A DNA stretch of 64,000 nucleotides from a virus (taxonomy: Duplodnaviria; Caudoviricetes). Both the position numbers and the translations under genes were made by a program. The first letter of the stretch is position 1, and each line of letters begins with the position of its first letter. Under the pieces are notes generated by a model. The model saw only the letters and a program-made list of their open reading frames with translations, was not told where the DNA came from and searched no databases. Positions 1,476-64,000 of the stretch are shown one piece after another. The stretch is from positions 509 to 64,508 of the IMG/VR virus record IMGVR_UViG_3300049173_000052; one strand, written 5' to 3'.

Positions 1476-2111
1476 GTGGACGACGTTAAGTGGACCGGGG
1501 AGAAAGCCGCCCGGCTCCAGGACGCATTCGAAATGACCCAGGAAGAGTTCGCCGGAAAGCTCGGGGTCTCGGTTCGCAGTGTCGCTTCATGGCGTGCGAA
1601 CCCGAGGATGGTGCCCCAGTCGGAGACGCAGCGAATCCTGGACACGACCTTGGGATTGGCAGGTGATGCGGTGCGCCGGCGCTTCATCCATTCGTTGCGG
1701 GCAGCGGCGCCCCAGCCTGAGGCGCAGGCGCTACGTGTAGCGATCGCCGTGGTCCGTCGCGGTGGTGATGTGCTGCTTGTATGCAGGCAGGACGGCGACG
1801 ATATCGCTTGGCAGTTCCCGGCGGGCATCGTGAAGCCGGGCGGCTCGGCGTCGAAGGTCGCTGTGCGGGAAACCCTGGATGAGACCGGGGTTCATTGCAC
1901 AGTCCGCGGACACTTGGGTGAACGACTGCACCCTTATACGCGCGCAATGTGCGATTACTTCATCTGTGACTACGTGCACGGTGAGGCGGTCAACGGGGAT
2001 TCCTCCGAGAACGTCGCCGTGGTGTGGGCTCCGATTGGCGAGCTTGGCCGCTTCATCCCAACGGACCGCATCTATCCGCCGATCCTGGACGCCTTGGAGG
2101 CAACGGTATGA
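1476..2111 (+). CDS. XRE-HTH + NUDIX fusion protein (degenerate NUDIX box)
   Basis: N-term MTQEEFAGKLGVSVRSVASW; C-term GIVKPGGSASKVAVRETLDETGV (first conserved E replaced by G, EE by DE). Confidence 0.85.
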   Translation: MDDVKWTGEKAARLQDAFEMTQEEFAGKLGVSVRSVASWRANPRMVPQSETQRILDTTLGLAGDAVRRRFIHSLRAAAPQPEAQALRVAIAVVRRGGDVLLVCRQDGDDIAWQFPAGIVKPGGSASKVAVRETLDETGVHCTVRGHLGERLHPYTRAMCDYFICDYVHGEAVNGDSSENVAVVWAPIGELGRFIPTDRIYPPILDALEATV

Positions 2112-2515
2112 CCGAGAAGATCACCGAGAAGGGCGTCAGCGCCGCCATCATCGTGCGCGAGGGCAAGGTCCTAATGGTCCGGCGCCGGGTCGGCGAGGGC
2201 GACTTGCTGTGGCAGTTCCCGGCCGGCCAGATCGAGCCCGGCGAGGCTGTCGAGGATGCGGCGGTGCGCGAGACGGTCGAGGAGACCGGGCTGGTCGTCA
2301 CGGCGATCCGCCTCCTGGGCGAGCGTGTTCACCCGAAGACCGGGCGCGCGATGTCCTACACGGCCTGCGAGGTGCTGCAGGGCGAGGCCCGGGTTGCGGA
2401 CGAGGATGAGCTCGACGCGGTCGCCTGGGTCTCCCGCTCGGAGATCACGGACTACGTGCCGTACCCGCTGTACGAGAAGGTCCAGGAGTATCTCGACGAC
2501 GTGCTGCCGCGCTGA
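2108..2515 (+). CDS. NUDIX hydrolase (Pif/MutT-like)
   Basis: Canonical box GQIEPGEAVEDAAVRETVEETGL; ATGA coupling to the upstream gene. Confidence 0.92.
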   Translation: MTEKITEKGVSAAIIVREGKVLMVRRRVGEGDLLWQFPAGQIEPGEAVEDAAVRETVEETGLVVTAIRLLGERVHPKTGRAMSYTACEVLQGEARVADEDELDAVAWVSRSEITDYVPYPLYEKVQEYLDDVLPR

Positions 2516-6413: not shown

Positions 6414-6482
6414 CGCAAGCTCCTTGCGGTCGGTAGGGTCGGTGCCAGGCCCGGGCGGTAGCAGCGCCCGGGCCGTCTGCGG

Positions 6483-22906: not shown

Positions 22907-23150
22907 GCGCTTTCGGACCGGGCGTGTGGGGCGCCTCGACTCAGGAGTAAAGCTGAGTTTCAGCCCTGGCGGAAGGTGTCTCATGCATATTCTTCGACTT
23001 TCCGTTCATTGCCGATCCGTTTCTGTAACCGCAGGTCAGGTGTTGGCCAAACGTTCCTGTGTTGATGCAGGTCACCGCCGTCAGGTGAGGCTCACCTGCG
23101 CCTGACCGGTGGCTGAAACCGCGCGTTTTGCTACCGGCCAGTTGCCCCGG

Positions 23151-23366: not shown

Positions 23367-23534
23367 GTCGACGCACCGCCTTGTGCTCGTCGGCCATGCC
23401 CCCGGGCCGGTGTGCCGCCGGTCGCGGGGGTCTTGCAATTTCACGGTACCGCTCCGACAGGCCCGATAGGTGCGATAGGGCCGATAGGCGCACTCGTCTC
23501 GCCTGGCGGGGTGAGCGGTCCTAGCGTCCGGATC

Positions 23535-23780
23535 ATGGAATGGCAGCCGGATATCCCGAGGTGGCAGCAGGTGTACGCCGTGATGGAAGAGCGGATCGCG
23601 GGCGGCACCTACCCGCCGGGCGGACGACTGCCGTCGGTGGTTGACGTGTGTGCCGAGTTCGAGATCTCCCAGATGACGGCGCGGAAGGTGCTGCAGAAGC
23701 TGCGGGAGGCCGGCCTGGCGGCGATGCACCCGGGCGTGGGCACGTTCGTCACGGAACTGCCGCAGCCGCCGAAGTCATAG
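23535..23780 (+). CDS. GntR winged-helix-only regulator (81 aa)
   Basis: WQQVYAVMEERIAGGTYPPGGRLPS...TARKVLQKLREAG...GVGTFV. Confidence 0.88.
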   Translation: MEWQPDIPRWQQVYAVMEERIAGGTYPPGGRLPSVVDVCAEFEISQMTARKVLQKLREAGLAAMHPGVGTFVTELPQPPKS

Positions 23781-47666: not shown

Positions 47667-49062
47667 CGGGCTCCTCAGCCTCCGGCGTCTCGGGCCCGCC
47701 GTCCGCGGCCTGCGTCAGCCGCTGCAGCAGCGCATTGCCCTGCGCCCGGCGCCGCTCGGCCGCAACCCGGCGCCGCTGATCCTCACTCAGGCCCGCCATC
47801 TCCAGCACGACGTCACCGTCGGCCGGCAGGATGCCCGCCTGGACGAGCTTCACCGCGGCGTCGGCCTGGGCCGCGACCGTCGGCGTAGCGGGGTTGCGCC
47901 AGACGCACTCGATGCGGCGCGACTTGTCTGGCGGCTCCCCATCGCGGAACCAGAGCGCCAACCTCATCGCGTCCCGGTGTGTCGCCGAGAAGCGCCTGAT
48001 GCGCCGCTCCGCCTTCTTGATCTGGCCGTTGTCGGCGAAACGGATCGCGTCCGCGCTCGCCGGGTTGTCGCTGGTGTAGCCGAGCACGTGCGGGGCCACC
48101 GACAGCTGCGACGCCATGATGCGGGCGTAGAGGTCGATGATTTTCGTCTGCCCAGACGGATCGTGGGCCGCGAACTGCCCGACCGTGGGCACTTCCCCGT
48201 TCTCGTCCCGCTCCAGCGCCAGCACGCGGCCGATGTACGTCTCCCAGGCCGACTTGGCGTTGCCCTCCGCGTCCTGGAAGGCACTCTCCGACACCCCCAG
48301 GATGTAGCGCTGCGGCGCCTGGAAAAACTCGGCGCCCACCTCGATGCCCATCAGCCGTCGGCACGCCGCATCCGTGATCGACATGACCTCGGGCGTGATC
48401 TCCGACTTGCCGATGCGGTCCGCGGTGCGCTGCCGGTTCGCCATCCGCAGCACCGGCACCATGCCCAGGTTGTGGATGTCCCGGTCAAAGACCTCCCAGC
48501 CGCCATCCACTTCGGCCGCGTACACCGTCTGGTCCGGCAGATACAGGGTGGCGATCCGCACCCCGTCCTCGACAGACTCGCGCAGAGCCGCCGTCGCCAG
48601 CCGCAGCCGGGCATCCCAGAACATCGTCATGTCCAGCGGCGACTCGAACGTGATCAGCGGCGGGTCGCCCGCCTCACCCGAGCCGACCGCCACGTACTCG
48701 CGGCCATAGGTGAGAGCATCCAGGTGCGCCAACGACGCCTCGTCGTACAGGTCGTTCGACTCGGCGATCTCCTCCAGATCGGACGGGTCCGTACCGTCCG
48801 CCCAGCGGAACGCCTCCAGGTCGAGACGCTGCTCCAGCGACTCGACACCGATGCGCGGCCAGCCGATCACCGTGTGGAGCCCCTTGAGCTGCGGCGGAAT
48901 CGAAATGCCAAGGTCACGGACAAGCTGCTCGCCGTTGAAATAGGCGTCGAGCAGCTCCAGCTTGAACCGCTGCGACAGCAGATCCGTGCGCAGCGCCGTC
49001 AGCAGCTGTGCCTCGTCGCCCGACAGCGACAGAAGCGGCAGCTCGGGGATGGTCGCAGTCAT
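47647..49062 (-). CDS. Portal protein (SPP1 gp6-like)
   Basis: GWPRIGV, ALTYGR, GKSEI, NPASADAI, WRNPAT. Confidence 0.92.
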   Translation of the reverse strand: MTATIPELPLLSLSGDEAQLLTALRTDLLSQRFKLELLDAYFNGEQLVRDLGISIPPQLKGLHTVIGWPRIGVESLEQRLDLEAFRWADGTDPSDLEEIAESNDLYDEASLAHLDALTYGREYVAVGSGEAGDPPLITFESPLDMTMFWDARLRLATAALRESVEDGVRIATLYLPDQTVYAAEVDGGWEVFDRDIHNLGMVPVLRMANRQRTADRIGKSEITPEVMSITDAACRRLMGIEVGAEFFQAPQRYILGVSESAFQDAEGNAKSAWETYIGRVLALERDENGEVPTVGQFAAHDPSGQTKIIDLYARIMASQLSVAPHVLGYTSDNPASADAIRFADNGQIKKAERRIRRFSATHRDAMRLALWFRDGEPPDKSRRIECVWRNPATPTVAAQADAAVKLVQAGILPADGDVVLEMAGLSEDQRRRVAAERRRAQGNALLQRLTQAADGGPETPEAEEPDGDEDL

Positions 49063-50798
49063 CGAAGCACCACCACCCTCCCCTTGCCTGGCGTGCCGCG
49101 CTTCGCCCACGCCGTCGAGTTCAACATCATCCGGCGCAGCATCCGTGCCCCGATCGCACAGACCGCGAGGTCGACCTTGCGGGCCGACTCGCGGTGCTCC
49201 TTGCCGATCGTGTAGCCCCACGCGTTGGTGCGCCGCCGGGCGTTCGCCACGTGCTGCCGCAGCATCCGATGCCCATCGTGGAAGAGTTGCCGCTCCAGCA
49301 CGTCCCGGTAGAAGCGGTCGACGGCCTCTGTGAACGCCTGCTGACGCCGCCGGTCACGCATGTCCCACAGCACCGCATGCCGGTTCGCGCCACCCGTCAC
49401 CGCCTTCAGCTTCAGCTTGTTGCCGTAGCGCTGCGCCCACGCGTCGATGTAGCCGTCCCAGTAGCGCTCGCCGTCCGCGTCGTCATGGCCGGCGCCCGGG
49501 TCGGCGAAGAACGCAATCGGCCGGTAGTCCGCGAACACCTGATCCACCGTGCCGTCGACCTCCTCGCGCGGCACCCGCCACGGCACATCCCCCGGCCAGT
49601 TCGCCGGCCTCTGCCAGACTCCGAGGGCGGTAACGAAGCCGTCCGACATGCGGCAAGCCGCCAGGCCCGTGGCGTCATCGCTCTTGGAGCCATCGAAGAA
49701 CAAGACGATCTCGTCGCCCTGCTGCAGTGCGGCTTCTTCTCGGCGGCAGGCGTCCCACTCATACGGCGCGAGGAACGCGTCCTCCGCGGCAACGATCTGG
49801 TTGAACCAGAAGCGCCTGGACCGGCTCGGCGGGTTGCGGACGTCGAGGATGGACGCCTTCAACCGGTCGATGTCCAGCCAGGTCGAATCCCCGCGGACCG
49901 CCTTCAAGGTCGGGACGATCCACTCCTCGGTGAGCTTCGCCTCAGCCGGAGCCTCCAGCGAGTCGTAGAACAGGCCCGTGTCCACCACTCGGCCGGCCTC
50001 AGCCGACTCGAACGCCTCCCGGGTGCGCTCGGCGACACTGTCCTCGCCCGGCTCGTAGGCGTTCGTGTTCGCCAGAGTTCTCGACTGGCCGTCCGCGCTC
50101 TTGGTGGCGTTGCGCTCGATCACCGCGGCCATCTCGTGGCCCTGGTTCGACTCCAGCCAGTGGTGCGTCTCCCCCAGGTTGACGGCCGTCGGCCGACCGC
50201 CCTCCAGGGCTCGCGGCGACGAAGTGACCGCCTCAATGCGGGCCCGCCCCTTGTCGGCGTAGATGATCTCCTTGCCGAGGTCGATCCGGTACTCCTCGAT
50301 CGCCCGCTTCGACAGGATCGACGGGAACAGCGTCATCGTGTTCCGCGTCTGATCCTGCGACACCGCCGCGATCTGCACCCACGCCGCCGGATGCTGCACC
50401 CCCAGCGGCTGGCCGGCCGGGACGCCCCACTCGTTGCCCTCGTCGGCGACCTGGCCGAAGCGGCACGGACCGACGAACTCGAACGCGGACCACGTCGCGA
50501 TCAGCGGATCCTTGCCCCAGCCCTTCAGCCGCTGGATCACGCCGTCCCGCCACAGGAACCGGTTCGTCGCCGGATCCATCGCGTACCACCACAGGGTCAA
50601 ACGCGCCTGCTCGGCCGTGTACTGCCAAGCCTTACCGGCGTACTGCTGCAGGTACGTCTTCGTCCAGATCAGGCAGTGCCAGCCCAGCGTGTACTCGGGG
50701 AGAACGAACCGACCGTCCGGGCCGCGCTTCCACGTCGGGCCAATCGTGAAGGGTTCGACGACCTCAGGGACCTGCCCGTCAGCCACCTGCGATGTCAC
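49059..50798 (-). CDS. Terminase large subunit
   Basis: RLKGWGKDP, AVSQDQT, ETHHW, FDGSKSDDAT, KVDLAV. Confidence 0.94.
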   Translation of the reverse strand: MTSQVADGQVPEVVEPFTIGPTWKRGPDGRFVLPEYTLGWHCLIWTKTYLQQYAGKAWQYTAEQARLTLWWYAMDPATNRFLWRDGVIQRLKGWGKDPLIATWSAFEFVGPCRFGQVADEGNEWGVPAGQPLGVQHPAAWVQIAAVSQDQTRNTMTLFPSILSKRAIEEYRIDLGKEIIYADKGRARIEAVTSSPRALEGGRPTAVNLGETHHWLESNQGHEMAAVIERNATKSADGQSRTLANTNAYEPGEDSVAERTREAFESAEAGRVVDTGLFYDSLEAPAEAKLTEEWIVPTLKAVRGDSTWLDIDRLKASILDVRNPPSRSRRFWFNQIVAAEDAFLAPYEWDACRREEAALQQGDEIVLFFDGSKSDDATGLAACRMSDGFVTALGVWQRPANWPGDVPWRVPREEVDGTVDQVFADYRPIAFFADPGAGHDDADGERYWDGYIDAWAQRYGNKLKLKAVTGGANRHAVLWDMRDRRRQQAFTEAVDRFYRDVLERQLFHDGHRMLRQHVANARRRTNAWGYTIGKEHRESARKVDLAVCAIGARMLRRMMLNSTAWAKRGTPGKGRVVVLR

Positions 50799-51295: not shown

Positions 51296-51940
51296 TCAGA
51301 CCAGCGAGGCAATCACACCGGCCGCATCACGCAGCTCGGCAAGCTCAAGAGGCGTCCCGCTCACGCGGTCGCCGACGATGATGTACCGGCGATCCGAGTA
51401 CACCTCGACCGCCACCTCGTCGCGACGGATACGGCGACCGGACGGCACCGCGCCGCGGAACCACAGGTGCAGGCCCGAACCGGATCGGCCTCGCTCCATG
51501 TACGTCGCCGGCAGGGCGCCCACGATCCGCTGCGCCCACGGCAGGACACGGCCATCCTCGACCGCGTGGTCCAGGTCGACGACGACGATCCCGTCACCGG
51601 CCGTCAGTACGAAGCCGACACCCTCGCCGGCCGTGGCCCTGGCCGCAGTCGGGAAGTCCGACCACGTCGACGGGTTGTCCACGGCGGCGAACCGGCCGTC
51701 GACGCGCAGCGGCACCTTCCGCGACGAGTACCGAACCCACCGCGGACGCGTCGTCAACTCGACCGGCACGCGCGCGGCCTGCTCGAGCGTTACCCGCTCA
51801 CGGTCCGCGCGGCGACGCTCCCGGTACGCGGCCTGCCGACACGGCGACGAGCAGTAGCGCGCATCCGCCCGGGCCATCAGCGGCAGCGGGCCGGCGCAGT
51901 GCTCGCACTCGGTGCGGCCGGCGACGGGAGCGGTGGTCAT
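51296..51940 (-). CDS. Zn-finger + AEP primase-polymerase domain protein (no helicase)
   Basis: CEHC...CSSPC; DLDH, SGSGLH, EVY motifs. Confidence 0.78.
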   Translation of the reverse strand: MTTAPVAGRTECEHCAGPLPLMARADARYCSSPCRQAAYRERRRADRERVTLEQAARVPVELTTRPRWVRYSSRKVPLRVDGRFAAVDNPSTWSDFPTAARATAGEGVGFVLTAGDGIVVVDLDHAVEDGRVLPWAQRIVGALPATYMERGRSGSGLHLWFRGAVPSGRRIRRDEVAVEVYSDRRYIIVGDRVSGTPLELAELRDAAGVIASLV

Positions 51941-52080
51941 GAGCCCCATCGTACAGGCTCCGCGTTACGGCTACAGGCTTCTGACCTGCACCGTAACCGT
52001 CCTGATACCGTCCAGCACAGGCCAGGTGGACTAGACCTGATGGACATACCCGCAGGTCAGCGGCCTTGGAAACCCGGGGG

Positions 52081-53669: not shown

Positions 53670-53969
53670 CTAGTAGACGGTGATCGTTCCAGTGCGGTAC
53701 ACGGGCACCTCCGTGCCGGCGGCCCACGTCAGCCACACTCGGTACTCGCCCGGCTCCAACACGACCGCCCCACCCGATGGGCCCACCAGAATTCGCGCGT
53801 GCGGCACACTCCACTCCCCCGCCAGCCAATCCTCCACCGTCGGGTTCTCGCTCGACGAAGCGGGCAGGAAGGCGAACTTGGGTGGCGCCGCCGGATTGAC
53901 GGAGCTGCCAGCGGCTCGCGAGGTGGCGGTGACGCGGACGTACTCGGTGGATGTGGCTGCTATCTCCAC
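53670..53969 (-). CDS. Small Ig-like/BppU-like virion protein
   Basis: LVGP.GG...L.PGEYRVWL. Confidence 0.65.
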   Translation of the reverse strand: MEIAATSTEYVRVTATSRAAGSSVNPAAPPKFAFLPASSSENPTVEDWLAGEWSVPHARILVGPSGGAVVLEPGEYRVWLTWAAGTEVPVYRTGTITVY

Positions 53970-54799
53970 GGGATGCTCACCACCCATCCGGCCGAGGGTC
54001 TGCCGATGGTGAAGTCGACGTCGCTGAGGCTGCTGGTGCCCGTGGCGGTCGCTGTCGCGTCGGTGTCGAGGCTGCCGTTGCCGGTGGCGTAGTACACGGC
54101 GCTCGCTGCGGCGGCTGTGTCGATGTCGAGCTGGCCGGAGCCGGTGGCGACAGCGGTACGCTGCCCGCTGGCCGTCGCATTGGAGTCCATGGTGGCGTTG
54201 CCGGTGGCGGTGTGGACGGCGCCGTTGTTGAGCGTGTTGACCAGGTCGAATTCGGCGTAGTCGCCGGTTCCGGCGTCGCGATGGGCGGACATGTCGAGGG
54301 CGCACGTGTCGATGTTCGTCGCGATCCAGGCGGGGGTGGCGAGGGTGCGGCGGTTGGTCCAGGTGCTGCCGTCGGGCGACGTGTCCCAGTACAGGTTGGT
54401 GCCGTCTTCGCGCAGCCGCAGGAACGCGTGCGTGGTCGCGCTGTAGGTGAGGGTGACCGCGTTGTCGTCCCAGTAGTCCGTCTCGGACACCATTCGCAGG
54501 ACGTTGGTGACTTTGTTGACGCTGAAGCCAACGCGGGTGCCTTCGATGTTGCCTTGCACCATGACGGCCGCGTAGGCCTCGGCGGTGGCGCCGGCCGCCG
54601 ACGGGGTGGTGGGCATCTGCACGAAGAGGGTGGCCCCGGCGAGGGTCCACGCGTAGGCGGTCTGGCAGCCGGCGTATCCGGTGGTGCACGGGACGCGGGC
54701 CCGCCCGGCGGCGACCGCGGTACCGCCGTAGGAGTTGCCCCAGTTGGCGCCGAGCGTTCCGCTGTTGAAGTTGTCTACGAGGGTGGACAGGCTGGGCAT
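53960..54799 (-). CDS. Lectin-like beta-sandwich virion protein
   Basis: LRLREDGTNLYWDTSPDGSTWT; Ala/Thr-rich repeats. Confidence 0.65.
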   Translation of the reverse strand: MPSLSTLVDNFNSGTLGANWGNSYGGTAVAAGRARVPCTTGYAGCQTAYAWTLAGATLFVQMPTTPSAAGATAEAYAAVMVQGNIEGTRVGFSVNKVTNVLRMVSETDYWDDNAVTLTYSATTHAFLRLREDGTNLYWDTSPDGSTWTNRRTLATPAWIATNIDTCALDMSAHRDAGTGDYAEFDLVNTLNNGAVHTATGNATMDSNATASGQRTAVATGSGQLDIDTAAAASAVYYATGNGSLDTDATATATGTSSLSDVDFTIGRPSAGWVVSIPWR

Positions 54800-54812: not shown

Positions 54813-55196
54813 CTACGACGCGGTGAACGTCCAGCCCCCGGCGGCGACCTTGAACTCGTCCCCGGCGGCGACGGTCTTCGGGGCGTCGAACGGACCGTAG
54901 GACCAGCGCACTGGTGTGCCCGCAGAGTCCCAGATCTCCCAGCCGACGACCGTGCAGGCCGGCATGCCGGTGAAACTCAGGTCGGCCGAGTTGGAGACGG
55001 AGCCGTTGACGGCGGCGGCGACGGTGATGTTCTTCCGCGCGTAGGAGCCGCCGGTGACCTCGGTGCCAGCGGCGGCGTCGGAGCCGGCTGCGGTGACGAG
55101 GGCCATCTTCAGTGGCAGCGTCGGCGCCGTGGTCGCCGTGCCGAACAGCCAGTCGACGGCCCGGTTCTCGGCGGTATTGGTGAGGTTGTCTGCCAT
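54813..55196 (-). CDS. Phage tail-fibre-type structural protein
   Basis: EVTGGSYAR...NSADLSF...VVGWEIWDS...KTVAAGD. Confidence 0.75.
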   Translation of the reverse strand: MADNLTNTAENRAVDWLFGTATTAPTLPLKMALVTAAGSDAAAGTEVTGGSYARKNITVAAAVNGSVSNSADLSFTGMPACTVVGWEIWDSAGTPVRWSYGPFDAPKTVAAGDEFKVAAGGWTFTAS

Positions 55197-55206: not shown

Positions 55207-57204
55207 TTAGTCGTAGCGGTAGATGTCGGAGACGGGCAGGACCTTGAGGCCGCGGGCCGCGATCCCGTCCATGATCGAGTTGAAGTCCGCGACGCTGCAC
55301 TGGTTCGTGGTGGTCGCAGTGCCCGAGACGATCTCGTGGAACGTCAGGATGGTCCACGCCCCGGTCGACGCGGTCCGGTCCAGCGCTCCCCCGGCGGCGA
55401 GCATCGTCGTCGGGTTCGCCGGCGAGGCGCCACCAGCCATCGAGCCGATACCGGAGATGGACCGCATCCGGAACGGCTGCCCGGGCGGGTGCGTTTCGCT
55501 GGCGTTGTCGGCGCTCGCGATGCCGCGGCCGGTGGAGAAGTAGCGGGCCGTCAGCTGGTCGATCGGATCGCCGTCGGTGGTGGGCCCGAACCAGCCGCCC
55601 GGGTAGGCGTAGTGCTCCGAGGGGAAGCCGCGGGCGACCATCCAGGCCCGCAGCTGCCGAAGTTCGTCGAGGACGGCGGCCGTGGACAGCGTCGTGTATT
55701 TGGCGTTGTGGGCGGCCACCGTGTAGGCGTGTCCGGCGATGTCCCACCCGGCGTCCTGCATGGCCCGCAGGTTGCTGGTGGTGAGGTAGACGCCGCTGGT
55801 GTCGATGACGTCGGCGATCGTGTAGATCGTGCCCCGGTAGCCGAGCGCGTCCATCTTGGGCCGGGCCAGGGCGTACTGCGACGCGTAGCAGTCGTCGAAC
55901 GTGATCGACACGGCGCCGTTGGGGAAGGTGGCCACGGTGCCGTCGATGATCTCGACGGACTGCAAGTTCACGGTGGCCGGCGCGGAGCCGCCCTTGTCGA
56001 CGACCTGGAACGCCATATCCGTCAGACCGCTCGTCGTCGACGGAATGCCTGTGGAGCCGACGGTGAAAGTGCCGGTCGGCGACCTCACGCCGGACCACTG
56101 GAGGGTGACGGTCACCCACTCGCCCGACTGCACTTGGTTCTGCGCCGTCGTGGCGTGCGTGAACACCCGCCAGCTGTAGGAGTTGGCGAGCGACGACGTA
56201 CCCACCAGGAAGTTGATCTGGTTGATCCTGGAGACGTCCGCGACGCGAAAGACGAGCCGGATCGCCTTACCGGTCAGGTCGAACGCGGTCGCCCCGTACC
56301 GGCGGATGTTCGCGACCGCGCCCGTGCCCGTGGTCGTCATGGCGAACGACTGCGAGCCCCGGATGAACGTCGTCGTGTCGTTGACGTTCGACGACGCGAC
56401 GCCCGAGCCGGACGCCGTCCAGCCGTGCCCCGACGCGAAGATCTGCCGCCAGGCCGCCTCGCGGAACTTCGGCGCCCGGGTCCCGCGCGGGAACAGTGTG
56501 GGCGTGCGCGCATCCGTCGTGGACGGATCATCGCTGCGAAGCGCGATCGTCGGGCCAGCGCCGGCCGCACCGAGCGAAGGCTGCGGACCCTGCGGCCCGG
56601 TCTCGCCCTGGGGCCCTTCCGGCCCTTCTGGTCCGACCGAGCCGACAGGCCCCTGCTCGCCAGCAGGTCCAACGGGCCCTTCGGGACCTTCCGGCCCCGC
56701 CGGTCCAGCGGCTCCCGTTCCACCGGCGGGTCCGACGGCTCCCTGCTCACCCGCCGGCCCGATCAGCGAGGCGAGCCACTCGGTGACCGTCCCGGTGAAT
56801 CCCTCCTCGACAGCGACCTCGTAGGCGCTCATGCCGGGCGCCCCGACGCTGCCGCCACCGGGGGCCTGCGTGGGCACCAGATCATCGAGGTAGACCGTGG
56901 CCCCGTCAGCGCCTTGGATGTCGGCCCAGAAGCTGACCCGCTGCCCGCGCGACGGCTGTATGTCGACGTACCAGCGCCAGCCGTCCGGGCCAATCCCGGC
57001 AGCGTTGTTCGGGATCAGCTGGGCGGTGAACGCGCCGTCGACAATGTCGACTTTGCCGCCGCCGGGATAGACCGCGTGCCGGGCCGTGTCCGTCAGCACC
57101 GCCGACGGGGTCAGCACCACCTGCCCGCCGTAGCCGTCCCCCGCAACAGCGGAGGGCAGGGTGCCGGTGAGGGTGACCACGGGAGTGCCAGCGGGGAAGG
57201 CCAT
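55207..57204 (-). CDS. Collagen-repeat fibre protein with C-terminal CE4/NodB polysaccharide deacetylase
   Basis: GAGGAGG RBS; 20 consecutive G-X-Y triplets; ITFDD, GH, YAYPGG, ILTFH. Confidence 0.82.
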
Positions 57205-57260
57205 CGCCACCTCCTCGGTGAAGCCCCGCCGTCCGCGGGACCGCACGAACGACGGGACGA

Positions 57261-57503
57261 TCAGGCGGCCTTGGGTGCGCGCTGCGGCATGGGCCGGTAG
57301 GTCTTGGCGCGTTCCTTGATCTCGGGGAGGGCGTACATGGTCTTGTACTCGTGACCCTGGCCGGTAAGTTGCCCGTCGCCCTGGAAGCGGTGGATCTTCC
57401 CGCGCCGCGCCCACTGCCTGATGACCGGGCCGGGGACGCCGGTCGCTTCGGTCGCTTCGTGCTCGTAGACGAGGTCGTCGGGGTACAGCTCGGTCACGTC
57501 CAT
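57261..57503 (-). CDS. MerR-like HTH protein, possible late-gene regulator
   Basis: [21 protein letters not shown]...MYALPEI; first gene after a terminator. Confidence 0.7.
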
Positions 57504-57523
57504 GCGGCCTCCCCGGGGCATGC

Positions 57524-57552
57524 AAAAGGCCCCCGGCAGTAGCTGGGGGCCT
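57524..57552 (-). terminator. Intrinsic terminator ending the transfer operon
   Basis: 11-bp stem, 4-nt loop, followed by TTTT on the minus strand. Confidence 0.75.
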
Positions 57553-57615
57553 AAGAGGCTTGCGGGCACACGTGTCCTGCCCTGGGGGCACTGTGACATA
57601 CGGTGATCGTCGCGG

Positions 57616-57891
57616 TCAAGCGGCTGCCGGGATGCCCCAACTGCCGCCTCGGGTGGCCCGGAGCGCCTCTGACGCCTGCGTGTAGTCCATGAGCACCTCA
57701 CGGGCGAGCGAACCGCAGGCGGGCCCGACGATTCCGTGGCGGCCCATCATGTCGAGCAGGTGCTCACAGATCTCGAACGGCACGGACACGTTGTAGTCCC
57801 GCCGGAGGCGCCGACGGATCATGGACGGCGAGCCAAAGCGGGACTCGGTGACGAGCTTGGTGGCTGCGTAGAGCAGGTCGATGTGTGGCAT
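57616..57891 (-). CDS. Stand-alone FtsK gamma (winged-helix) domain protein
   Basis: DLLYAATKLVTESRFGSPSMIRRRLR...LLDMMGRHGIVGPACGSLAREVL matches the FtsK gamma pattern. Confidence 0.8.
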   Translation of the reverse strand: MPHIDLLYAATKLVTESRFGSPSMIRRRLRRDYNVSVPFEICEHLLDMMGRHGIVGPACGSLAREVLMDYTQASEALRATRGGSWGIPAAA

Positions 57892-58142
57892 CAGTGGACC
57901 TCCTGAGTTGTGAGGGTACGGACGTGTACGGGCATCGCCACTCCCCCGGCCTTCATCGCCCCTTCGAGCGCGGCCTGCGCTCCACTGTCCCGCCACGCCG
58001 CGGCGATATCGGCCCGGGCGAAGTGCAGCCGGAGCGTGCCGTCGTCGACGGTGGGGGTGGCGTGGGCGAGGAGCATGCCCGCCGCCTGACGACGGGTCGA
58101 CGTTGCTTCCAGCACCTGCGACCACCAGGCGGGGGCGGTCAT
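57891..58142 (-). CDS. Stand-alone domain resembling actinobacterial DnaX tau C-terminal region
   Basis: W..VLEA...RR....LL..A....DGTL.L.F.......SG....L; similarity recalled, not computed. Confidence 0.5.
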   Translation of the reverse strand: MTAPAWWSQVLEATSTRRQAAGMLLAHATPTVDDGTLRLHFARADIAAAWRDSGAQAALEGAMKAGGVAMPVHVRTLTTQEVH

Positions 58143-58351
58143 GCCGCCGCCTTCTCTCGGATGTCGGAGACGAGACCGCTCGCGTCGATATCCAGCTCGG
58201 TGCCGCAGTTGGGGCAGCTGTACTCGATGCCGCCGCCGACCTCCTTGGGGATCATGTCGTCGCCGCAGCAGATCGGGACGTCGTCGAGGTCGGTGTCGTC
58301 GGCTATGGATAGTTCGTAGCCGTAGCTGGTGGTGGGGCCGGTAGAGCACAT
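58139..58351 (-). CDS. Small zinc-ribbon protein
   Basis: PICCGDDM...CPNCG. Confidence 0.65.
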   Translation of the reverse strand: MCSTGPTTSYGYELSIADDTDLDDVPICCGDDMIPKEVGGGIEYSCPNCGTELDIDASGLVSDIREKAAA

Positions 58352-58360
58352 AGCGGTCTC

Positions 58361-58546
58361 CTAGTCGAGGTCGCGGGTGTCGTTGAAGATGTCGAGGTAC
58401 GAGGTGCCGTCGGCGGCAGTTAGACCGGCGAGGATGTCGAGGGCCGTCACTGCCGAGCCCCTGCTGTTGAGAAGGTCGTTGATCTCCTCGTCTGTGGCGG
58501 CGCGGCCTTCGGGGCTCTCGTCGTCGTGGATGGTCACGTCGGTCAT
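58361..58546 (-). CDS. Small acidic hypothetical protein
   Basis: 61 aa, GAGGAG RBS. Confidence 0.6.
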   Translation of the reverse strand: MTDVTIHDDESPEGRAATDEEINDLLNSRGSAVTALDILAGLTAADGTSYLDIFNDTRDLD

Positions 58547-58558
58547 ACAGTTCTCCTC

Positions 58559-59032
58559 CTACTGCTGGTTGTTGGTCTTGGCCCACACGCCGCGAGTGGT
58601 GGTCTGGACGTTGCGCTGGTCCTGGTAGACGGTGCCGGTGTAGGTCTGGTGGATCTCGGCGGGGACGGCTTCCTTCGCTCCGCGCAGGAGCCAGGCGAGG
58701 GCGAGGATGGGCACGGCGAGCGCGGCGGGGGCGGCGCAGATCATGCCGATGACGGTCGGATTGGCGTGCTCGGAAGCGACCACCACGGCGACCGCAATCA
58801 GGCCCGGGGGCACGGTGGCGAGGCTGCAGAACATGACGGCCCGGGCGGTCTCGGTCGTGCGCTGCGACATGGGCGGGATACCGGGCTGCGGGACGGGCGG
58901 GGCGTCTCCGTACCGCGGGAGCGGGGTCTGGTCGCGGTAGGAGGTGGCGAAGTCGGCGATGATCCGGCGCGCCTCAACGGCAGCCTCGGCGTCGGTCATT
59001 GCGGTGCGGGTCGGGTCGGTCTCGGCGGGCAT
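58559..59032 (-). CDS. Two-TM membrane protein (Spd-like by context)
   Basis: Pro-rich N-terminus, two TM helices, immediately after traB/clt. Confidence 0.7.
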   Translation of the reverse strand: MPAETDPTRTAMTDAEAAVEARRIIADFATSYRDQTPLPRYGDAPPVPQPGIPPMSQRTTETARAVMFCSLATVPPGLIAVAVVVASEHANPTVIGMICAAPAALAVPILALAWLLRGAKEAVPAEIHQTYTGTVYQDQRNVQTTTRGVWAKTNNQQ

Positions 59033-59080
59033 GGTGGGCTCCTGCGGGTGATCGTTTCGGGTGGCCTGGGGGCTGTTCGA

Positions 59081-59251
59081 CCCGTCCTGCCCCTCGTCCG
59101 AGGGTGCATTTGCGCTGGTCAGAGCTCGGCGAAGGCTCGTCGACGGGGGCTTTGAGCCCGTCCTGGCCGGACGGGGCTGCGGTGGCCAGGACGGGGGTTG
59201 GACTGGGTTCAAACTAGGTCAAAACAGGTCAGTGGACGGGGGTTGGACGGG
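59081..59251. repeat. clt-like locus with TRS-like GGACGGG(G) repeats
   Basis: GGACGGG at 59169, 59189, 59234, 59245; inverted at 59081 and 59157; variants at 59141 and 59200; 15-bp direct repeat GGACGGGGGTTGGAC at 59189 and 59234. Confidence 0.7.
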
Positions 59252-59253
59252 CC

Positions 59254-61356
59254 TCACAGGCCGATGTCGTACCGGTCCAGCACCGCGCGGCGGACCGCGG
59301 CGAGCGGGTAGACGGACACCTTGCTGCCGTTGACCTCCTGCCGCCGCTTCTCCTCATCGGTGCGCGGCACGAGCACGGCCAACCGGTCGGCGGTCACCGG
59401 GTGGCCGGCCGCAGCAAGCCCTTCGGTGACGCGGGCGGCGGGCAGCAGTTCCACGCCCTCCGGGTACAGGCCGAGCAGGGCGGCGAGGATCTCGCCGTCT
59501 TCCCCAGCGGCGCGCAGCCGGTCGAGCGGGCCGAGCGGCAGCGTCCCGGCTTCCTGCCGAAGCGTGTGGGCGCGGCCCATGATGGCGGCGACCTCGTCGT
59601 CGTCGTAGTAGTCGCCGCGGACCAGCTCTGGCTCGGCGCCTTCACCGTCCATGTAGATGCCCACGCCGCGCTGCGACTTGAGGATGTCCTGCGCGTTATG
59701 CCCGGCGGAGGCGTAGCCCTGACCGAGGATCGTGTCGGAGGCCTGCGGAGTGAGGCAGCGCATCGCCCAGCGGATGGACAGGATGTCGCGGATGCCGGTG
59801 GGCACGGAGTCGCTGTCGGGCTTCTGCGTGGCGGCGAGGCTGATGATGCCGAGCGCCCGGCCCTGCTGGACGATCAGCCGCAGCAGGCGCTCCATCTCCT
59901 GCCGGGTCTTCTGGTCGGCGGCGGCACCGTAGGACGACCATTCGTCGACGAGGAGCACGGCCAGGCAGACCCGCGGGTCGACGGCGGCCATCGCTTCGGT
60001 CAGCTTGCGGGAGCCGTGCTCCTTGGCCAGGGCGCGCCGTTCCTTGATCTCGACGTCCCACATGTACTGCAGGATGTCGAGGAGCTTGTCGGGGTCGCCG
60101 TCGGTGTCGAACATGGTGGCGATCGGCTCGAACGGGGTGATGTCGGCGCCGGCCTTGCCGTCGGCGAGGTACATGCGCACCGTGGGGTCGAGGGCGGCGG
60201 CGAGCAGCAGGTCGTTCGCCGCGGCTGACTTACCGGAGCCGGGCTCGCCGCCGAACAGTCCGGACCGCTCAACCCACGAGGTGACGACTTCCTCGCCGCG
60301 CAGGTTGACGCCCATCCGGATGGGCTGCCACAGGTTCACCTTCTCGGCGTCGAGCAGCGGGCCCCGGGTCGGCTTGGTGGAGAACGGCAGCTTCAGCGAC
60401 ACCCGCAGGTGGATGGTGTCCTCGCGGTCGCCGCGCGCCTGGTGGACCTGCTGCACGGACACGCCGAAGCCGTTGGCGATGCCCTCGCGCGCCCCGAGCG
60501 CCTTCTTGGCGGGGGTGCCGGACGGCAGCTGGAACACGACCTGCCAGGCCTTGCCGTCGGCGGTGAGCGTGCACGGGGTGCTGAGGCGCAGGGTGTCGTC
60601 GGCGGCGATGACGCGGGCGTCACGGTAGACGCGGTTGACCATGTCGTCGGTCATCCGGTCCCCGTCGCCGATCTTCGCGTCGCGGTCGGTGTACAGCTCG
60701 CCCGCGGTGGTGCGCCGGCCAATCAGAGCGAACGTGGCCAGGGTCGCCGCGGTGGCCGCGAGCCCGCCGGGGGCACCGAGCAGGTGCAGCCCGGCCCCCT
60801 CAACGCCGGCGATCGGAGCCAGGGCCGCCATGCCGCGCACGGCCCGCCGCATGCGGGCATCCCGCTGCGCCGACCGGTACTTGCTCATCGCGGAGGCGGA
60901 GTCGGCGAACGCGCCTTCCATCTCCCGGCGGCGCTTCTCCTTCTCCTTGCCGGGCATGAGCCGCCGGTCGTGCGCCCACTTCGCGGCCTTGTAGTCGCGC
61001 TGCGTCTGCTGCAGCTCGTGCCGGGCGGCAGTCACCTGAGCGCCCTCGGTGCCCTGCACCCACAGGGCGGTGCGCCAGATGCCGCGACCGATCTGGGAGG
61101 CGTGCCCGTGCTCGGTGGCCTGCCGGCGCAGCCACTTGCGGAAGCCACGCATCGTGTTGACGCGGCCCACCGCAGCCCGGCTCTTCCAGCCGCCGCGGGT
61201 CTTCGTCCAGGCGGGGGTGAGGGGGGTGTCGCCCATCAGGTCGACGGACGTCGTCTGCTTCTCGACGGGCGCCTCACCGGGGGCGTTCAGGTACCCGCCG
61301 ACGATGCGCTCCCACTCCGGGTCGGGGGTGCTGCTGGGGGTCGTCTCGATGCTCAT
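59254..61356 (-). CDS. traB: FtsK/SpoIIIE-family DNA translocase, TraB/TraSA-like
   Basis: TM segment, Walker A GGEPGSGKS, DGK, Walker B LLVDEWSS, ATQKP; Spd-like neighbours. Confidence 0.88.
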   Translation of the reverse strand: MSIETTPSSTPDPEWERIVGGYLNAPGEAPVEKQTTSVDLMGDTPLTPAWTKTRGGWKSRAAVGRVNTMRGFRKWLRRQATEHGHASQIGRGIWRTALWVQGTEGAQVTAARHELQQTQRDYKAAKWAHDRRLMPGKEKEKRRREMEGAFADSASAMSKYRSAQRDARMRRAVRGMAALAPIAGVEGAGLHLLGAPGGLAATAATLATFALIGRRTTAGELYTDRDAKIGDGDRMTDDMVNRVYRDARVIAADDTLRLSTPCTLTADGKAWQVVFQLPSGTPAKKALGAREGIANGFGVSVQQVHQARGDREDTIHLRVSLKLPFSTKPTRGPLLDAEKVNLWQPIRMGVNLRGEEVVTSWVERSGLFGGEPGSGKSAAANDLLLAAALDPTVRMYLADGKAGADITPFEPIATMFDTDGDPDKLLDILQYMWDVEIKERRALAKEHGSRKLTEAMAAVDPRVCLAVLLVDEWSSYGAAADQKTRQEMERLLRLIVQQGRALGIISLAATQKPDSDSVPTGIRDILSIRWAMRCLTPQASDTILGQGYASAGHNAQDILKSQRGVGIYMDGEGAEPELVRGDYYDDDEVAAIMGRAHTLRQEAGTLPLGPLDRLRAAGEDGEILAALLGLYPEGVELLPAARVTEGLAAAGHPVTADRLAVLVPRTDEEKRRQEVNGSKVSVYPLAAVRRAVLDRYDIGL

Positions 61357-61365
61357 GACGGGTCC

Positions 61366-62511
61366 TTAGTGGTGGTGGCCGTTGACGGCAGGAATCCGGC
61401 GGGGAGAGCCGCCGCGCTCGAGGGCGGCCTCGTTCTTCGCGATGAGGTGGAACGGCACCGAGTCACCCTTGGTGCGGCGGTGCGGCGGAGGCGCCTTACG
61501 GCCACCCTTCTGAGCCGCCTTCTGGGGCACCTTGGGAGCGGGGGGTAGATCGGACGCGACCTGCGAAGATCCAGGCTCCGAGAGGCGCCCTACAGGGGCC
61601 GGGTGGAGCAGTTCCAGCAGACGCCCGCGAGTGCTCACCGGGGAGCCGTTCACCGCATCCATGGCGTCGGCGAGAGCCTTGCTGGAAGCGAGCTGCTCGG
61701 CGTGCAGAGCCGGGGTCATGCCGGGGGTCCGCGTGCCGTACTTGATCTCCCAGGCGGAAGCGAACGCCTCCTCGAACGAGAGGGTGCCGTAGGGGGCTGC
61801 GGACACCAGCGTCTTGGCGAGGGTGACGACGGCCTTGTGGTCCTTGCGGCGCCGCCGCTCGTGCTTCTCGCGGGCCTTCGTCTCGGAACGCCGCTTCCGC
61901 TCCCCCGCGTCGAACGACAGCGTCATCACCCACTGGCGAACCTCGAAGAACAGCGGACCGAGCAGGGTCACCGCGGCGAGACCAAAGCCGACCGCCGGAG
62001 CGATGTGCCGGCCGTAGTCGTAGTTGATCCACGCCGCGAAGCTGGCGGCGCTCATAGCCAGGGCTCGCAGAAGCCAGCGCACCCAGCCGGGCAGCTTTCG
62101 CTCGTCGGCATAGGCGACGCCCGCGTTCATCACCCAGGCGGCGCCTTCAAGGGCGAACGGCAGGGGCAGCAGCATCAGCGAGATGGTGGCGAAGTGCATG
62201 ATCTGCGCGGGCAGGGACGCCAGCGCAGACGCGGTGACGAGTGCGAGGGTGCCGCGCCGGTAGACGATGCCAGGGGTGGTGTTCTTCGCCCAGGCCTGGG
62301 CGCGTTCGCGACGGCGTTCGCGCTTGTCGCGGCGCTTCTGCTGCTTCTCGGCGCGGGCCTCGGCCTTGTCGGCCTGCCGGTTGGTGCGGCGCCGCTCATC
62401 TTCGGCAGCCCGCATCTTCAGGACGCGTTCGGCGGCGGCGGCCTGGTCCAGGCGGCGCTGCTCAGCCTCGGCCGCCTGGTTCCGTCGGCGCTCGTCGCTC
62501 CAGCTGCTCAC
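61366..62511 (-). CDS. SpdB-like (DUF2637-like) membrane protein with coiled coils
   Basis: Charged coiled-coil N-terminus, about four TM helices, immediately upstream of traB. Confidence 0.72.
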   Translation of the reverse strand: MSSWSDERRRNQAAEAEQRRLDQAAAAERVLKMRAAEDERRRTNRQADKAEARAEKQQKRRDKRERRRERAQAWAKNTTPGIVYRRGTLALVTASALASLPAQIMHFATISLMLLPLPFALEGAAWVMNAGVAYADERKLPGWVRWLLRALAMSAASFAAWINYDYGRHIAPAVGFGLAAVTLLGPLFFEVRQWVMTLSFDAGERKRRSETKAREKHERRRRKDHKAVVTLAKTLVSAAPYGTLSFEEAFASAWEIKYGTRTPGMTPALHAEQLASSKALADAMDAVNGSPVSTRGRLLELLHPAPVGRLSEPGSSQVASDLPPAPKVPQKAAQKGGRKAPPPHRRTKGDSVPFHLIAKNEAALERGGSPRRIPAVNGHHH

Positions 62512-62533
62512 GGTGATCGATTCCTTCCGGGTT

Positions 62534-62737
62534 TCAGGCGGTGGCGGTCTTGGCGGGGGTGGGCCGGTGCTTCAGCCAGGCGGCGACGGCGGCGAGGGCC
62601 AGCACGGGCCCGGGGATCGCGGCAATGACCGCGGCGATCCCGTCCAGGCCCAGCGAGACCGGGGCGAGAGCAGCCGGCCACAAGCCGACGGTGATCAGGT
62701 AGAGGGCAAGAGCGGCCCAGGCGATGACGCGGAACAT
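62534..62737 (-). CDS. Small hydrophobic membrane protein (SpdA-like by context)
   Basis: 67 aa, two TM helices. Confidence 0.65.
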   Translation of the reverse strand: MFRVIAWAALALYLITVGLWPAALAPVSLGLDGIAAVIAAIPGPVLALAAVAAWLKHRPTPAKTATA

Positions 62738-62830
62738 GACGACCTCTTCGGGGTCGGAACGGACGGGATGGGGTGGTGCTGCGCCAGTTCTCCTTGGCCC
62801 ACGTGCGTGACGCGGGCCGCGGACAGCCGG

Positions 62831-63031
62831 TCAGCGGCGGCGGTGGCTGGCCTTGTGCTGACGAAGGGAGTCCTTGCAGGGTCGGCACTTGCGGACAGGG
62901 CCGTTGCCGACGACGCCGGGCGGGATGATCGCGCCGCAGATCGCCGGGGTGACACCGCGCTGCAGCTGGGGGTGGCAGTCGGGGCAGTGGAAGTGCATGT
63001 CCAGGACGGGCAGGCTGGCGTCGTACTTCAC
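62831..63031 (-). CDS. Small zinc-finger protein
   Basis: HFHCPDC...ICG...CRPC. Confidence 0.6.
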   Translation of the reverse strand: MKYDASLPVLDMHFHCPDCHPQLQRGVTPAICGAIIPPGVVGNGPVRKCRPCKDSLRQHKASHRRR

Positions 63032-63222
63032 GTGTCGTCCCCGTCCTCGATGCAGTGGCCGAGGATCCGCATCGAGGTGTCCTGCCGGTAGTCGCCGGAG
63101 TGGGCGGTCAGGTCGTAGGCCGCGTGGTGGCTGCCCGCGTTCAACTGCGCGGCAGCGGACTTCACCTCGGCCTCGGTGGGGCGGTAGCCCTTCGGCTCGG
63201 GACTGCGGCGGAACAGGGCCAC
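63028..63222 (-). CDS. Small hypothetical protein
   Basis: 64 aa, GAGGAG RBS. Confidence 0.6.
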   Translation of the reverse strand: MALFRRSPEPKGYRPTEAEVKSAAAQLNAGSHHAAYDLTAHSGDYRQDTSMRILGHCIEDGDDT

Positions 63223-63305
63223 GGTGGGCTCCTCTCGGTGGGTGGCGGAACGCTGAGCGGTTCCCCTCACCGCCCGGCACGCATCCGGGCGGATCGGGCA
63301 GCCGA

Positions 63306-63482
63306 TCAGCCGTTGTCGCGCTCGACCTGCACGTCGCCGTCGACGCGGTAGCCGTGCTTGGCCAGGCCCGTGTAGACCTGCCCCCGGGCGTCGCGCTCGT
63401 TTTCGGCGGAGACCGTGCCGGTGACCTCGCTCTTGCCGTTGGTGCGCACCTCGACGGCGTCGGTCTTGATCCTGAACTTCAT
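63306..63482 (-). CDS. Small hypothetical protein (58 aa)
   Basis: Manual translation MKFRIKTDAVEVRTNGKSEV...; GAGGA RBS; strong GC3. Confidence 0.65.
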   Translation of the reverse strand: MKFRIKTDAVEVRTNGKSEVTGTVSAENERDARGQVYTGLAKHGYRVDGDVQVERDNG

Positions 63483-63616
63483 GGGGATTCCTCTCGGTCA
63501 GTGAATGGGTGGTGGTGCGCGCCCCGGGCCCGAGTCGATCGGGCACCGTCGCGGCTGGTCCGGGGCTGGATGCCGGGCGGGGCAGGGGGATGGACCCCGC
63601 CCGGCGGATCAGGGGG

Positions 63617-63745
63617 TCAGCCGTCCAGTCCGGGCAGCAGGTCGGCTTCCTGGCACGGATCCGGCGCGGCCGGGTCGTAGCCGCACGCACATACGGCGGT
63701 CGGGTCGGCCGGGGTGCCGCAGTCCGGACACGGGCGGGGCGGCAT
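63617..63745 (-). CDS. 42-aa Cys-rich peptide
   Basis: CPDC...CAC; TGATG coupling. Confidence 0.45.
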   Translation of the reverse strand: MPPRPCPDCGTPADPTAVCACGYDPAAPDPCQEADLLPGLDG

Positions 63746-63945
63746 CAGGCGGCGGCCGGGAGGGCGGAGCCGTACAGCTCGTCGAGCAGCGACTCGCCCG
63801 GGTTGACCTCGTCGTAGCGGGCGGCCTCGGCGAGCAGCTCCAGCTGGGTGACGTCGTCGGAGGCGGCGAGGAAGCGGCGGATCAGGTCGGTGCGGTAGGC
63901 GGCATCCGACGACGGGGCGGACGTGATCAGGGCGAACGTGGGCAT
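63745..63945 (-). CDS. Small hypothetical protein
   Basis: 66 aa, GAGGA RBS. Confidence 0.6.
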   Translation of the reverse strand: MPTFALITSAPSSDAAYRTDLIRRFLAASDDVTQLELLAEAARYDEVNPGESLLDELYGSALPAAA

Positions 63946-64000
63946 GGCGGTGGATCCTCACTGGTCAGGTGGGGCGGAAAGGGGTGGGGTCAGGCGGTGG

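Follow-up and report, generated by a model that had tools for sequence, protein, structure and literature searches.

The DNA analysed here is a 64,000-nucleotide stretch (the window) that comprises bases 509–64508 of the IMG/VR record IMGVR_UViG_3300049173_000052 (64,508 b; soil metagenome). It holds a temperate phage of Streptomyces that carries a transfer module of the type found in the plasmids pSVH1 and pSG5 (Reuther 2006; Vogelmann 2011; Thoma 2015, PMC4447253), namely a gene for the FtsK/SpoIIIE-type double-stranded DNA (dsDNA) translocase TraB (59254..61356, minus strand), a gene for a homologue of SpdB2 (61366..62511, minus strand) and a clt-like locus directly 3' of the traB stop (59033..59253, minus strand). 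The module shares homology and gene order with the plasmids, integrates together with the phage as one unit and is conserved under purifying selection, and its repeats co-vary with the recognition end of TraB. DNA binding, pumping, the form of the substrate and any transfer are what we infer from these features by analogy. On balance, we consider it probable that the module is a working dsDNA transfer or spread machinery of the plasmid type, by which the phage genome would move without a particle.

TraB, SpdB2 and the clt-like repeats

The 700-aa product of traB aligns with the characterised TraB of pSVH1 with 42% identity over 681 aa (query residues 35–698, E 2e-141), and the alignment includes the N-terminal part and the C-terminal end. 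Its motor matches PF01580 above the cut-off (E 9.7e-9) and phrog_1358 (E 1e-116), and the Walker motifs, which the initial annotation had described as intact, are so (Walker A GEPGSGKS at residue 370, Walker B VLLVDE at residue 467). The best plasmid matches are pSVH1, pSG5, pFP11 and similar Streptomyces plasmids, with 42–45% identity over the full length for pSVH1 and pSG5. Taken together, the alignments identify the protein as a true TraB homologue, beyond a generic relative of FtsK. The match to the NCBIfam plasmid_TraB model NF041214 is weak (21 bits, cut-off 800), which places the protein in a subfamily other than the one covered by that model.

The SpdB2 homologue (381 aa) is encoded immediately upstream, its stop codon lying 9 nt before the traB start. 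BLASTP aligns it with pSVH1 SpdB2 at 30% identity over 294 aa (E 5e-16), and a homologue on an S. xanthophaeus plasmid matches with an E-value of 5.6e-21. The charged N-terminal ~95 aa align with the coiled-coil of the pSVH1 protein, and 3–4 hydrophobic segments are apparent, with peaks at residues 110, 144 and 170 and a weak one at 228. In 22 of 23 related loci, the ORF (open reading frame) upstream of traB likewise matches plasmid SpdB2 proteins.

The order small ORF, spdB2, traB, ~220-bp gap and small membrane genes is also found in pSVH1, pSG5, pSTS2, pFP11 and the S. xanthophaeus plasmid. In the window, the small ORF encodes a 67-aa protein with two transmembrane (TM) segments (62534..62737, minus strand; TM and hydrophobic segments throughout, also those of SpdB2, are by simple hydropathy only) and takes the position of the small plasmid spd gene upstream of spdB2; it is kept upstream of spdB2/traB in most relatives, and the plasmids have an ORF of ~80 aa at the same position. 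Beyond the gap, a 157-aa protein with two TM segments (58559..59032, minus strand; phrog_19266, E 3e-42) is encoded downstream of traB and clt in 23 of 23 relatives. The likeness to pSVH1 and pSG5 thus covers a small TM ORF, SpdB2, TraB, a ~220-bp gap filled with a repeated 7–8-bp word and small membrane genes, and it extends to the mutual specificity of recognition end and repeat word. Every element of the minus-strand operon listed in the initial annotation (small TM proteins, an SpdB-like protein, an FtsK/SpoIIIE translocase and a 2-TM protein) is present, and its designation as a TraB-clt-Spd module is borne out by the full-length homology to pSVH1 TraB, the SpdB2 partner and the cognate clt-like array.

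Plasmid clt regions contain 8-bp direct repeats that are recognised by the C-terminus of the cognate TraB (PMC4447253). In the window, the ~220-bp gap 3' of traB holds six CCCGTCC words, four in one orientation and two inverted, together with variants, and the cluster spans 59081–59251. The word occurs 34 times in the window, which is the chance expectation, and six of these copies fall within 171 bp where ~0.09 would be expected. The repeat word of pSVH1 differs: GACCCGGA was tried as the clt word of the window and rejected, being found 8 times (6.8 expected) and absent from the clt region.

For a comparison across relatives, TraB and 240 bp around and after its stop were extracted from the 23 related loci (24 including the window) and the most frequent 7-mer was scored. 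Over the 24 loci, seven sequence types can be distinguished in the C-terminal ~90 residues of TraB, each with its own 7-mer after traB (CCCGTCC, CACAGGG, CCTGGAC, ACCCTGC, GGGTGCA, CCGGACG and CCCGTGA). Applied to pSVH1 as a positive control, the procedure returns the known word GACCCGG(A), five to six times. The TraB of locus L006 is 96% identical to that of the window over residues 1–609, yet it has a different C-terminal end and a different word. In locus L010, window DNA aligns with the sequence for the traB motor and with the 2-TM gene further downstream, but not with the intervening ~490 bp, where the recognition end and clt are located. Hence, the word pairing tracks the C-terminal end of TraB and not the motor, and the alignments indicate that recognition end and repeats are exchanged together as one cassette. 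This co-variation is the best available sequence evidence for a pairing of TraB with clt in these phages and for the phage genome as the substrate; if this genome is what TraB pumps, an array of this kind, situated on it and matched to the TraB end, would be expected.

The module within an integrating phage lineage

In the isolate S. azureus ATCC 14921, a traB 96% identical to that of the window lies in the middle of a 67.2-kb prophage between perfect 91-bp direct repeats, attL and attR (NZ_DF968221.1, 62686–62776 and 129818–129908; L042:10687–10777 and L043:13819–13909). A tyrosine integrase, the sole integrase of this prophage, adjoins attR, and an XRE gene lies near attL. The attR repeat extends over the 3' end of a host gene that encodes a Peptidase_C39_2 domain, and integration is therefore apparently into a protein-coding gene and not a tRNA gene; a search for tRNA genes gave none in the window and none at the att sites of S. 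azureus. The IMG/VR provirus call trims ~1.4 kb from each side of the S. azureus prophage, including the integrase. The provirus record of this prophage, G001, is collinear with the window and circularly permuted, its ends mapping to the integrase region of the window and its traB being central.

The source record is classed as linear by IMG/VR, and the tra module reaches its end. Four relatives have, upstream of the module, DNA with homology to the first 4 kb of the window. Since the relatives join both ends collinearly, the two record ends are adjacent and the record is a circular permutation. The initial annotation had called the element a complete siphophage, in agreement with a CheckV completeness estimate of 100% and with the presence of terminase, portal, protease, scaffold, capsid and tail genes. 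We conclude that the record represents a complete temperate Streptomyces phage of the siphovirus type, permuted as in its excised or virion form and not as a prophage, with the integrase flanked by phage genes on both sides.

The 23 related virus or provirus loci all show the same layout upstream of the packaging genes. Besides the window, 8 IMG/VR records have the arrangement, as do the S. azureus isolate and 13 further genomes of Streptomyces, the genus of all hosts. Close relatives occur in strains kept in culture collections, namely S. azureus ATCC 14921, S. thermocarboxydovorans JCM 10367, S. wuyuanensis CGMCC 4.7042 and S. bullii CGMCC 4.7019. Terminase or HK97 capsid genes are present in each of the nine IMG/VR records that encode this TraB, and at least three head-module types are represented: two IMG/VR records have a different capsid type ~9 kb from traB, and the terminases of some genome loci are only 30–31% identical. 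Given these varied capsids and terminases, the module keeps its place between early and packaging genes across head-module types. A search with the window terminase gave no homologue in 5 of another 10 genomes that encode TraB; these might have other terminases or carry traB in non-phage loci. Among 151 sampled Streptomyces genomes, four have a TraB match at E 1e-60, two of them being members of this clade that were already known.

The ratio of nonsynonymous to synonymous substitution rates (dN/dS) over TraB residues 1–600 is 0.09–0.12 for close pairs and 0.35–0.45 for distant pairs, with synonymous distances compressed by extreme codon bias, and these values indicate that TraB is under purifying selection. 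The initial annotation had also called for a phylogeny of the protein encoded at 59254 against TraB. In a quick maximum-likelihood tree of the N-terminal part and motor, the 23 virus and provirus TraBs form one group, apart from five plasmid TraBs (support of 94 in the Shimodaira–Hasegawa-like approximate likelihood ratio test, SH-aLRT), in a sampling that is biased because the genome loci were found with phage-clade peptide words and the sole additions were five close plasmids and one outgroup. The tree suggests a long-standing phage-borne lineage of TraB.

These data also bear on the idea that the module is a passenger or has some other use, i.e., that it is cargo derived from a plasmid or from an actinomycete integrative and conjugative element (AICE) and mobilises host DNA, excludes plasmids or phages, segregates DNA into spores or drifts to loss. 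Mosaicism is typical of phage genomes, and the junction that holds the module is prone to recombination, with unitig branch points and differing head modules. Furthermore, FtsK-like genes without a known role occur in other actinophages (PMC3706429, PMC13587820), and no traR gene adjoins the module. However, the clt-like array argues against mere cargo, being located on the phage genome itself and varying in step with the recognition end of TraB, as do the purifying selection on TraB, the position kept in 23 loci and the separate clade of the phage-borne TraBs (with the sampling bias just described). We therefore regard a passenger role as improbable.

Still less credible, and in our view very improbable, is a composite record in which a traB block from a separate AICE or plasmid was inserted beside the phage or misassembled in the soil metagenome. 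The module does lie at the record end, the metagenome assembly crosses five de Bruijn branch points in 48–64 kb and the unitig depth falls from ~62 to ~35 across the module. However, the S. azureus isolate has the same arrangement within its att repeats, with one integrase by attR, and the arrangement recurs in the 13 other genomes and 8 other IMG/VR records, with the record ends joined collinearly in relatives. Neither a tRNA gene anywhere in the window nor an integrase close to the module was found; direct repeats on either side of the module were not searched for. The initial annotation had noted that no att site or host gene separates the module from the virion genes, and none was found. 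It had also considered a separate AICE inserted in the phage, and this does not hold for S. azureus, where the module is internal to one att-bounded element. Judged from these comparisons, the module is an integral part of the phage, neither an inserted AICE nor a chimera.

In contigs probably of the source sample (X1), which give no independent support for the arrangement or the circular junction, the unitig k-mer depth changes from ~62 at the terminase to 35 at traB and 10–20 at 63.2–64.0 kb, and graph branch points occur at about 51.19, 55.03, 58.6, 63.25 and 63.6 kb. The depth steps fit the presence of several mosaic relatives with a common virion module in one soil sample.

Probable particle-free movement of the phage genome

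Of the pSVH1 genes, traB alone is essential for transfer, and spdB2, spd79 and spdB3 are needed for intramycelial spread. TraB hexamers form a DNA channel and dock on clt via their C-termini, and SpdB2 forms membrane pores (PMC4447253). Because homology and layout match pSVH1, we propose that the phage TraB docks on its own clt and pumps the phage genome. TraB would assemble as a membrane-associated hexameric pump and its C-terminal winged-helix end would dock on the CCCGTCC repeats, which lie on the phage genome just 3' of traB. The phage genome, as dsDNA and probably in circular form, would then be pumped by the ATPase motor across septal cross-walls or the hyphal envelope, assisted by the pore-forming SpdB2 protein and the small 2-TM proteins. 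As a result, the phage genome would spread between the compartments of one mycelium and probably into contacting mycelia, besides lysogeny and virion release.

A bolder version, which we put forward tentatively and hold to be possible but not probable, is that these elements are conjugative prophages. In this case, the excised circular genome of a whole integrating Streptomyces phage lineage would be pumped by its own TraB and clt into neighbouring mycelia, and the at least seven recognition-end/clt cassettes would define transfer-specificity groups. Conjugative prophages would bypass receptors and extracellular barriers, and transfer-specificity groups would, like immunity groups, keep co-resident elements from mobilising each other.

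The main rival is a role in spread inside one mycelium only. After infection by virions or after induction, phage DNA would cross septa to neighbouring compartments and thereby enlarge the infected or lysogenised territory, with no conjugation involved. This would accord with the specific spread function of SpdB2 in pSVH1 and with the participation of TraB in spread (PMC4447253), and the same role has been proposed for SpdB2 homologues of phages (PMC4447253). Moreover, the operon runs in the same direction as the early genes and the packaging genes, between which it lies. However, plasmid TraB and clt suffice for intermycelial transfer (PMC4447253), no sequence feature would confine TraB to septa, and the AICE-like NUDIX genes described below would fit a control of donor–recipient transfer. 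Overall, we consider a restriction to intramycelial spread rather unlikely.

Several observations weigh against a working transfer module that moves the phage genome without particles. First, donor–recipient transfer and spread within one mycelium would look alike in sequence, and spread alone fits the sequence data equally well. Second, the SpdB2 homologue matches no Pfam family at E 0.01 and hence not DUF2637, with which the plasmid homologues are annotated. Third, no clear homologue of spdB3 or spd79, which pSVH1 requires for spread, was identified, but only positional analogues; pSVH1 Spd198 gave no match to the 157-aa 2-TM protein. Fourth, no GntR-type TraR/Kor repressor is encoded in or beside the tra module, whereas the plasmids pair one with traB (kil-kor). 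Finally, neither TraB (tblastn, E 1e-5) nor SpdB2 (E 1e-3) has a match in 50,697 isolated-phage records, a collection that may lack records close to the window, and blastn of window positions 57000–64000 against the same records gave no match either. As no isolated phage in this collection has this TraB or SpdB2, such elements may be poor plaque formers or partly defective phages.

As to regulation, the upstream divergent position that TraR/KorA takes in plasmids is held by an XRE-NUDIX gene. This XRE-type helix-turn-helix (HTH)–NUDIX fusion gene and a second NUDIX gene (1476..2515, plus strand; Pfam NUDIX and HTH_3) are oriented opposite to the tra operon and lie ~3 kb upstream of it on the circular map, and six relatives (L008, L009, L029, L033, L034 and L038) have a NUDIX gene at the same position. 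The NUDIX protein Pif and regulators are known from AICEs (PMC2440964), and by analogy the XRE-NUDIX/NUDIX genes may be a counterpart of the AICE regulator/Pif pair. Two GntR-family HTH genes (22280–22906 and 23109–23780, plus strand) are located beside the integrase/attP region, ~36 kb from traB. In Streptomyces plasmids and AICEs, but not in phages, the master repressor is usually a GntR regulator (TraR, KorSA). The HTH of the first GntR gene is ~40% identical to those of pSVH1 TraR and pZL12.80, in the HTH region only, and the two genes may act as joint repressors of lysogeny and transfer. Operator-like words common to the tra upstream region and the GntR region occur at chance level only, the best being a 12-mer at 1063 and 22251.

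Despite the shared layout, phage and plasmids also differ. The phage is an integrating tailed phage of 64–67 kb and the plasmid has 12 kb, and the phage has no adjacent GntR-type TraR and no clear homologues of spdB3, spd79 and spdA. MOB-suite classes even pSVH1 as non-mobilizable.

The phage also resembles AICEs such as pSAM2, SLP1 and pMEA300, which have an integrase and att repeats, an FtsK-type Tra, Spd proteins, NUDIX proteins and XRE/GntR regulators and are maintained as a prophage is (PMC2440964, PMC3218068). However, it comprises 64–67 kb with full virion, lysis and phage replication genes, whereas AICEs have 9–24 kb. No RepSA or RepAM was noted among the phage proteins scanned, although no search was aimed at them; Prim-Pol is one of the AICE replication types. 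Ghinet et al. purposely left such loci out of the AICEs, as prophages.

Among phages, FtsK/SpoIIIE-like genes are present in Cluster J mycobacteriophages and in the Streptomyces phages Jaresh and AndoPrime, and SpdB2 homologues in phiC31 and VWB. For such genes, an action on phage DNA or on its spread has been suggested (PMC3706429, PMC13587820, PMC4447253), and Thoma et al. 2015 suggested that phage SpdB2 homologues spread phage DNA (PMC4447253). In contrast to the module described here, these are single genes without homology to the N- and C-terminal parts of TraB, without a clt array and without the pairing with SpdB2.

The nearest parallel in position is the Tra locus of pZL12. Immediately upstream of its virion genes, the pZL12 record has a GntR gene, a membrane protein gene, pZL12.70c and genes for two large proteins, of which one is annotated as FtsK/SpoIIIE-like, so that virion genes and a Tra locus upstream of the packaging genes are combined in the same position as in the window. 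pZL12, or phage ZL12 (GQ919031), is a published Streptomyces plasmid-phage (Zhong et al. 2010, J Bacteriol 192:3747), and pSLE1 is one of its relatives. pZL12.70c, encoded directly 3' of the pZL12 Tra gene, is 41% identical to the 157-aa 2-TM protein of the window, and the two pZL12 records are the sole matches of this protein in the phage collection. However, pZL12 is a ParA/ParB plasmid-prophage of 88–92 kb, whereas the phage of the window integrates and has no ParA/ParB match. The Tra proteins of pZL12 and of a homologue in Streptomyces sp. NBC_01005 show no BLASTP similarity to the window TraB and no Pfam match, and the pZL12 Tra type therefore cannot be called homologous to it. An SpdB2 homologue is likewise not detectable in the phage collection, which includes pZL12.

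The 88,191-b circular plasmid of strain NBC_01005 (NZ_CP108705.1; L044/L045) carries a pZL12-type Tra (88% identical) and a terminase 76% identical to that of the window. Since it joins the Tra of one type to the terminase of the other, the two kinds of transfer module are exchanged on related virion backbones. This pZL12-like phage-plasmid also has ParA/ParB, a type III polyketide synthase (PhlD) and a complete virion module syntenic with the window, and it is typed as non-mobilizable. NZ_CP109578.1 gives the same terminase match.

Given the precedent of pZL12 and the earlier proposal that phage SpdB2 proteins spread DNA, the idea of transfer functions in a phage is not new in kind, and the novelty implied by the initial annotation was overstated. 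New here are the carrier, which is an integrating prophage rather than a ParAB plasmid, the complete pSVH1-type set of TraB, clt and SpdB2, the extent of the lineage, which is widespread, and the documented recognition-end/clt cassettes. The accepted view is that phages pass between cells solely as particles, and that Streptomyces plasmids do so solely through dsDNA transfer driven by TraB. If particle-free movement takes place, an integrating phage lineage with both machineries would blur the line between phage and plasmid, and host range would be affected, as a receptor would not be needed. It would also bear on the spread of lysogeny through a compartmented mycelium and on gene flow in antibiotic-producing soil bacteria, with consequences for software that sorts mobile elements into phage, plasmid or integrative and conjugative element. 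The natural swaps of recognition end and clt are ready-made specificity controls, and the relatives in culture collections make the question testable.

Further genes of the operon and the phage genome

The ORFs of the tra operon lie on the minus strand and have a high third-position GC content (GC3). At the upstream end of the co-oriented block are a 66-aa ORF (63745..63945, minus strand; GC3 0.98) with a homologue in L029 and a 58-aa ORF (63306..63482, minus strand; GC3 0.98) with a homologue in L031, both without a Pfam match. Downstream of the 157-aa 2-TM gene follow a 61-aa acidic ORF (58361..58546, minus strand; GC3 0.89) without a family match and a 70-aa zinc-ribbon-like ORF (58139..58351, minus strand), whose Pfam zinc-ribbon matches are weak and below the cut-off and which has a homologue in the S. 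azureus prophage. The last gene encodes a free-standing FtsK gamma (winged-helix) domain of 91 aa without a motor (57616..57891, minus strand; PF09397, E 7.8e-9, above the cut-off). An N-terminal extension of this ORF (169-aa version) looks non-coding. The gene is accessory, with homologues in L008 and L012/L027 only, i.e., in some relatives including S. azureus.

A terminator-like hairpin with an 11-bp stem, a 4-nt loop and a T-run (57527..57552, minus strand), found in an inverted-repeat search, closes the operon; a simple promoter/terminator scan had returned nothing useful on the minus strand. The initial annotation had placed this terminator directly upstream of the virion genes. The hairpin is there, but ~6 kb of other genes precede the terminase. 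These minus-strand genes comprise an HTH-like ORF, a collagen-like/polysaccharide-deacetylase gene, a methyltransferase gene and a Prim-Pol-like gene. The collagen triple-helix repeats and the polysaccharide deacetylase (CE4) domain are combined in one large protein (55207–57591, minus strand), and the two fibre-like genes that follow (54813–55196 and 53960–54799) recur in most relatives. The short Prim-Pol-like protein (51296–51949, minus strand; phrog_8643, E 5e-53) is encoded just upstream of the packaging genes and far from the replication genes, and its role is uncertain.

The window has a G+C content of ~70%, and nearly all of its genes are on the minus strand. The large terminase gene (49059–50798, minus strand) is followed by genes for portal, protease, scaffold and an HK97-type capsid and, after the capsid gene, by minus-strand tail genes that encode a major tail protein, a 1,508-aa tape measure and tail proteins. 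By terminase, the nearest isolated phages are the Streptomyces siphoviruses Amela, Endor2 and phiCAM (~48% identity). The early genes encode a YqaJ-type exonuclease, RecT, a C5 methylase, DnaB and DpdA. The last of these, a DpdA-family protein linked to 7-deazaguanine DNA modification (5167–6696, minus strand; PF23859, E 1e-64), belongs to the early operon, and no deazapurine synthesis genes turned up among the proteins scanned. No further mobility module was found, and neither ParB_N nor ParA (AAA_31) has a match in the record.

A 444-aa integrase gene (20364–21698) has the opposite orientation and matches phrog_1 only, with no Pfam model. A second tyrosine recombinase of 343 aa (26997–28028, minus strand; PF00589) is encoded near the lysis/tail end, and it is 34% identical to a recombinase of the pZL12-like NBC_01005 plasmid. 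Either of the two may be the enzyme that acts at attP. Directly 3' of the major capsid gene lies a gene for a GT4-type glycosyltransferase (44237–45259, minus strand), and the NBC_01005 phage-plasmid has one too.

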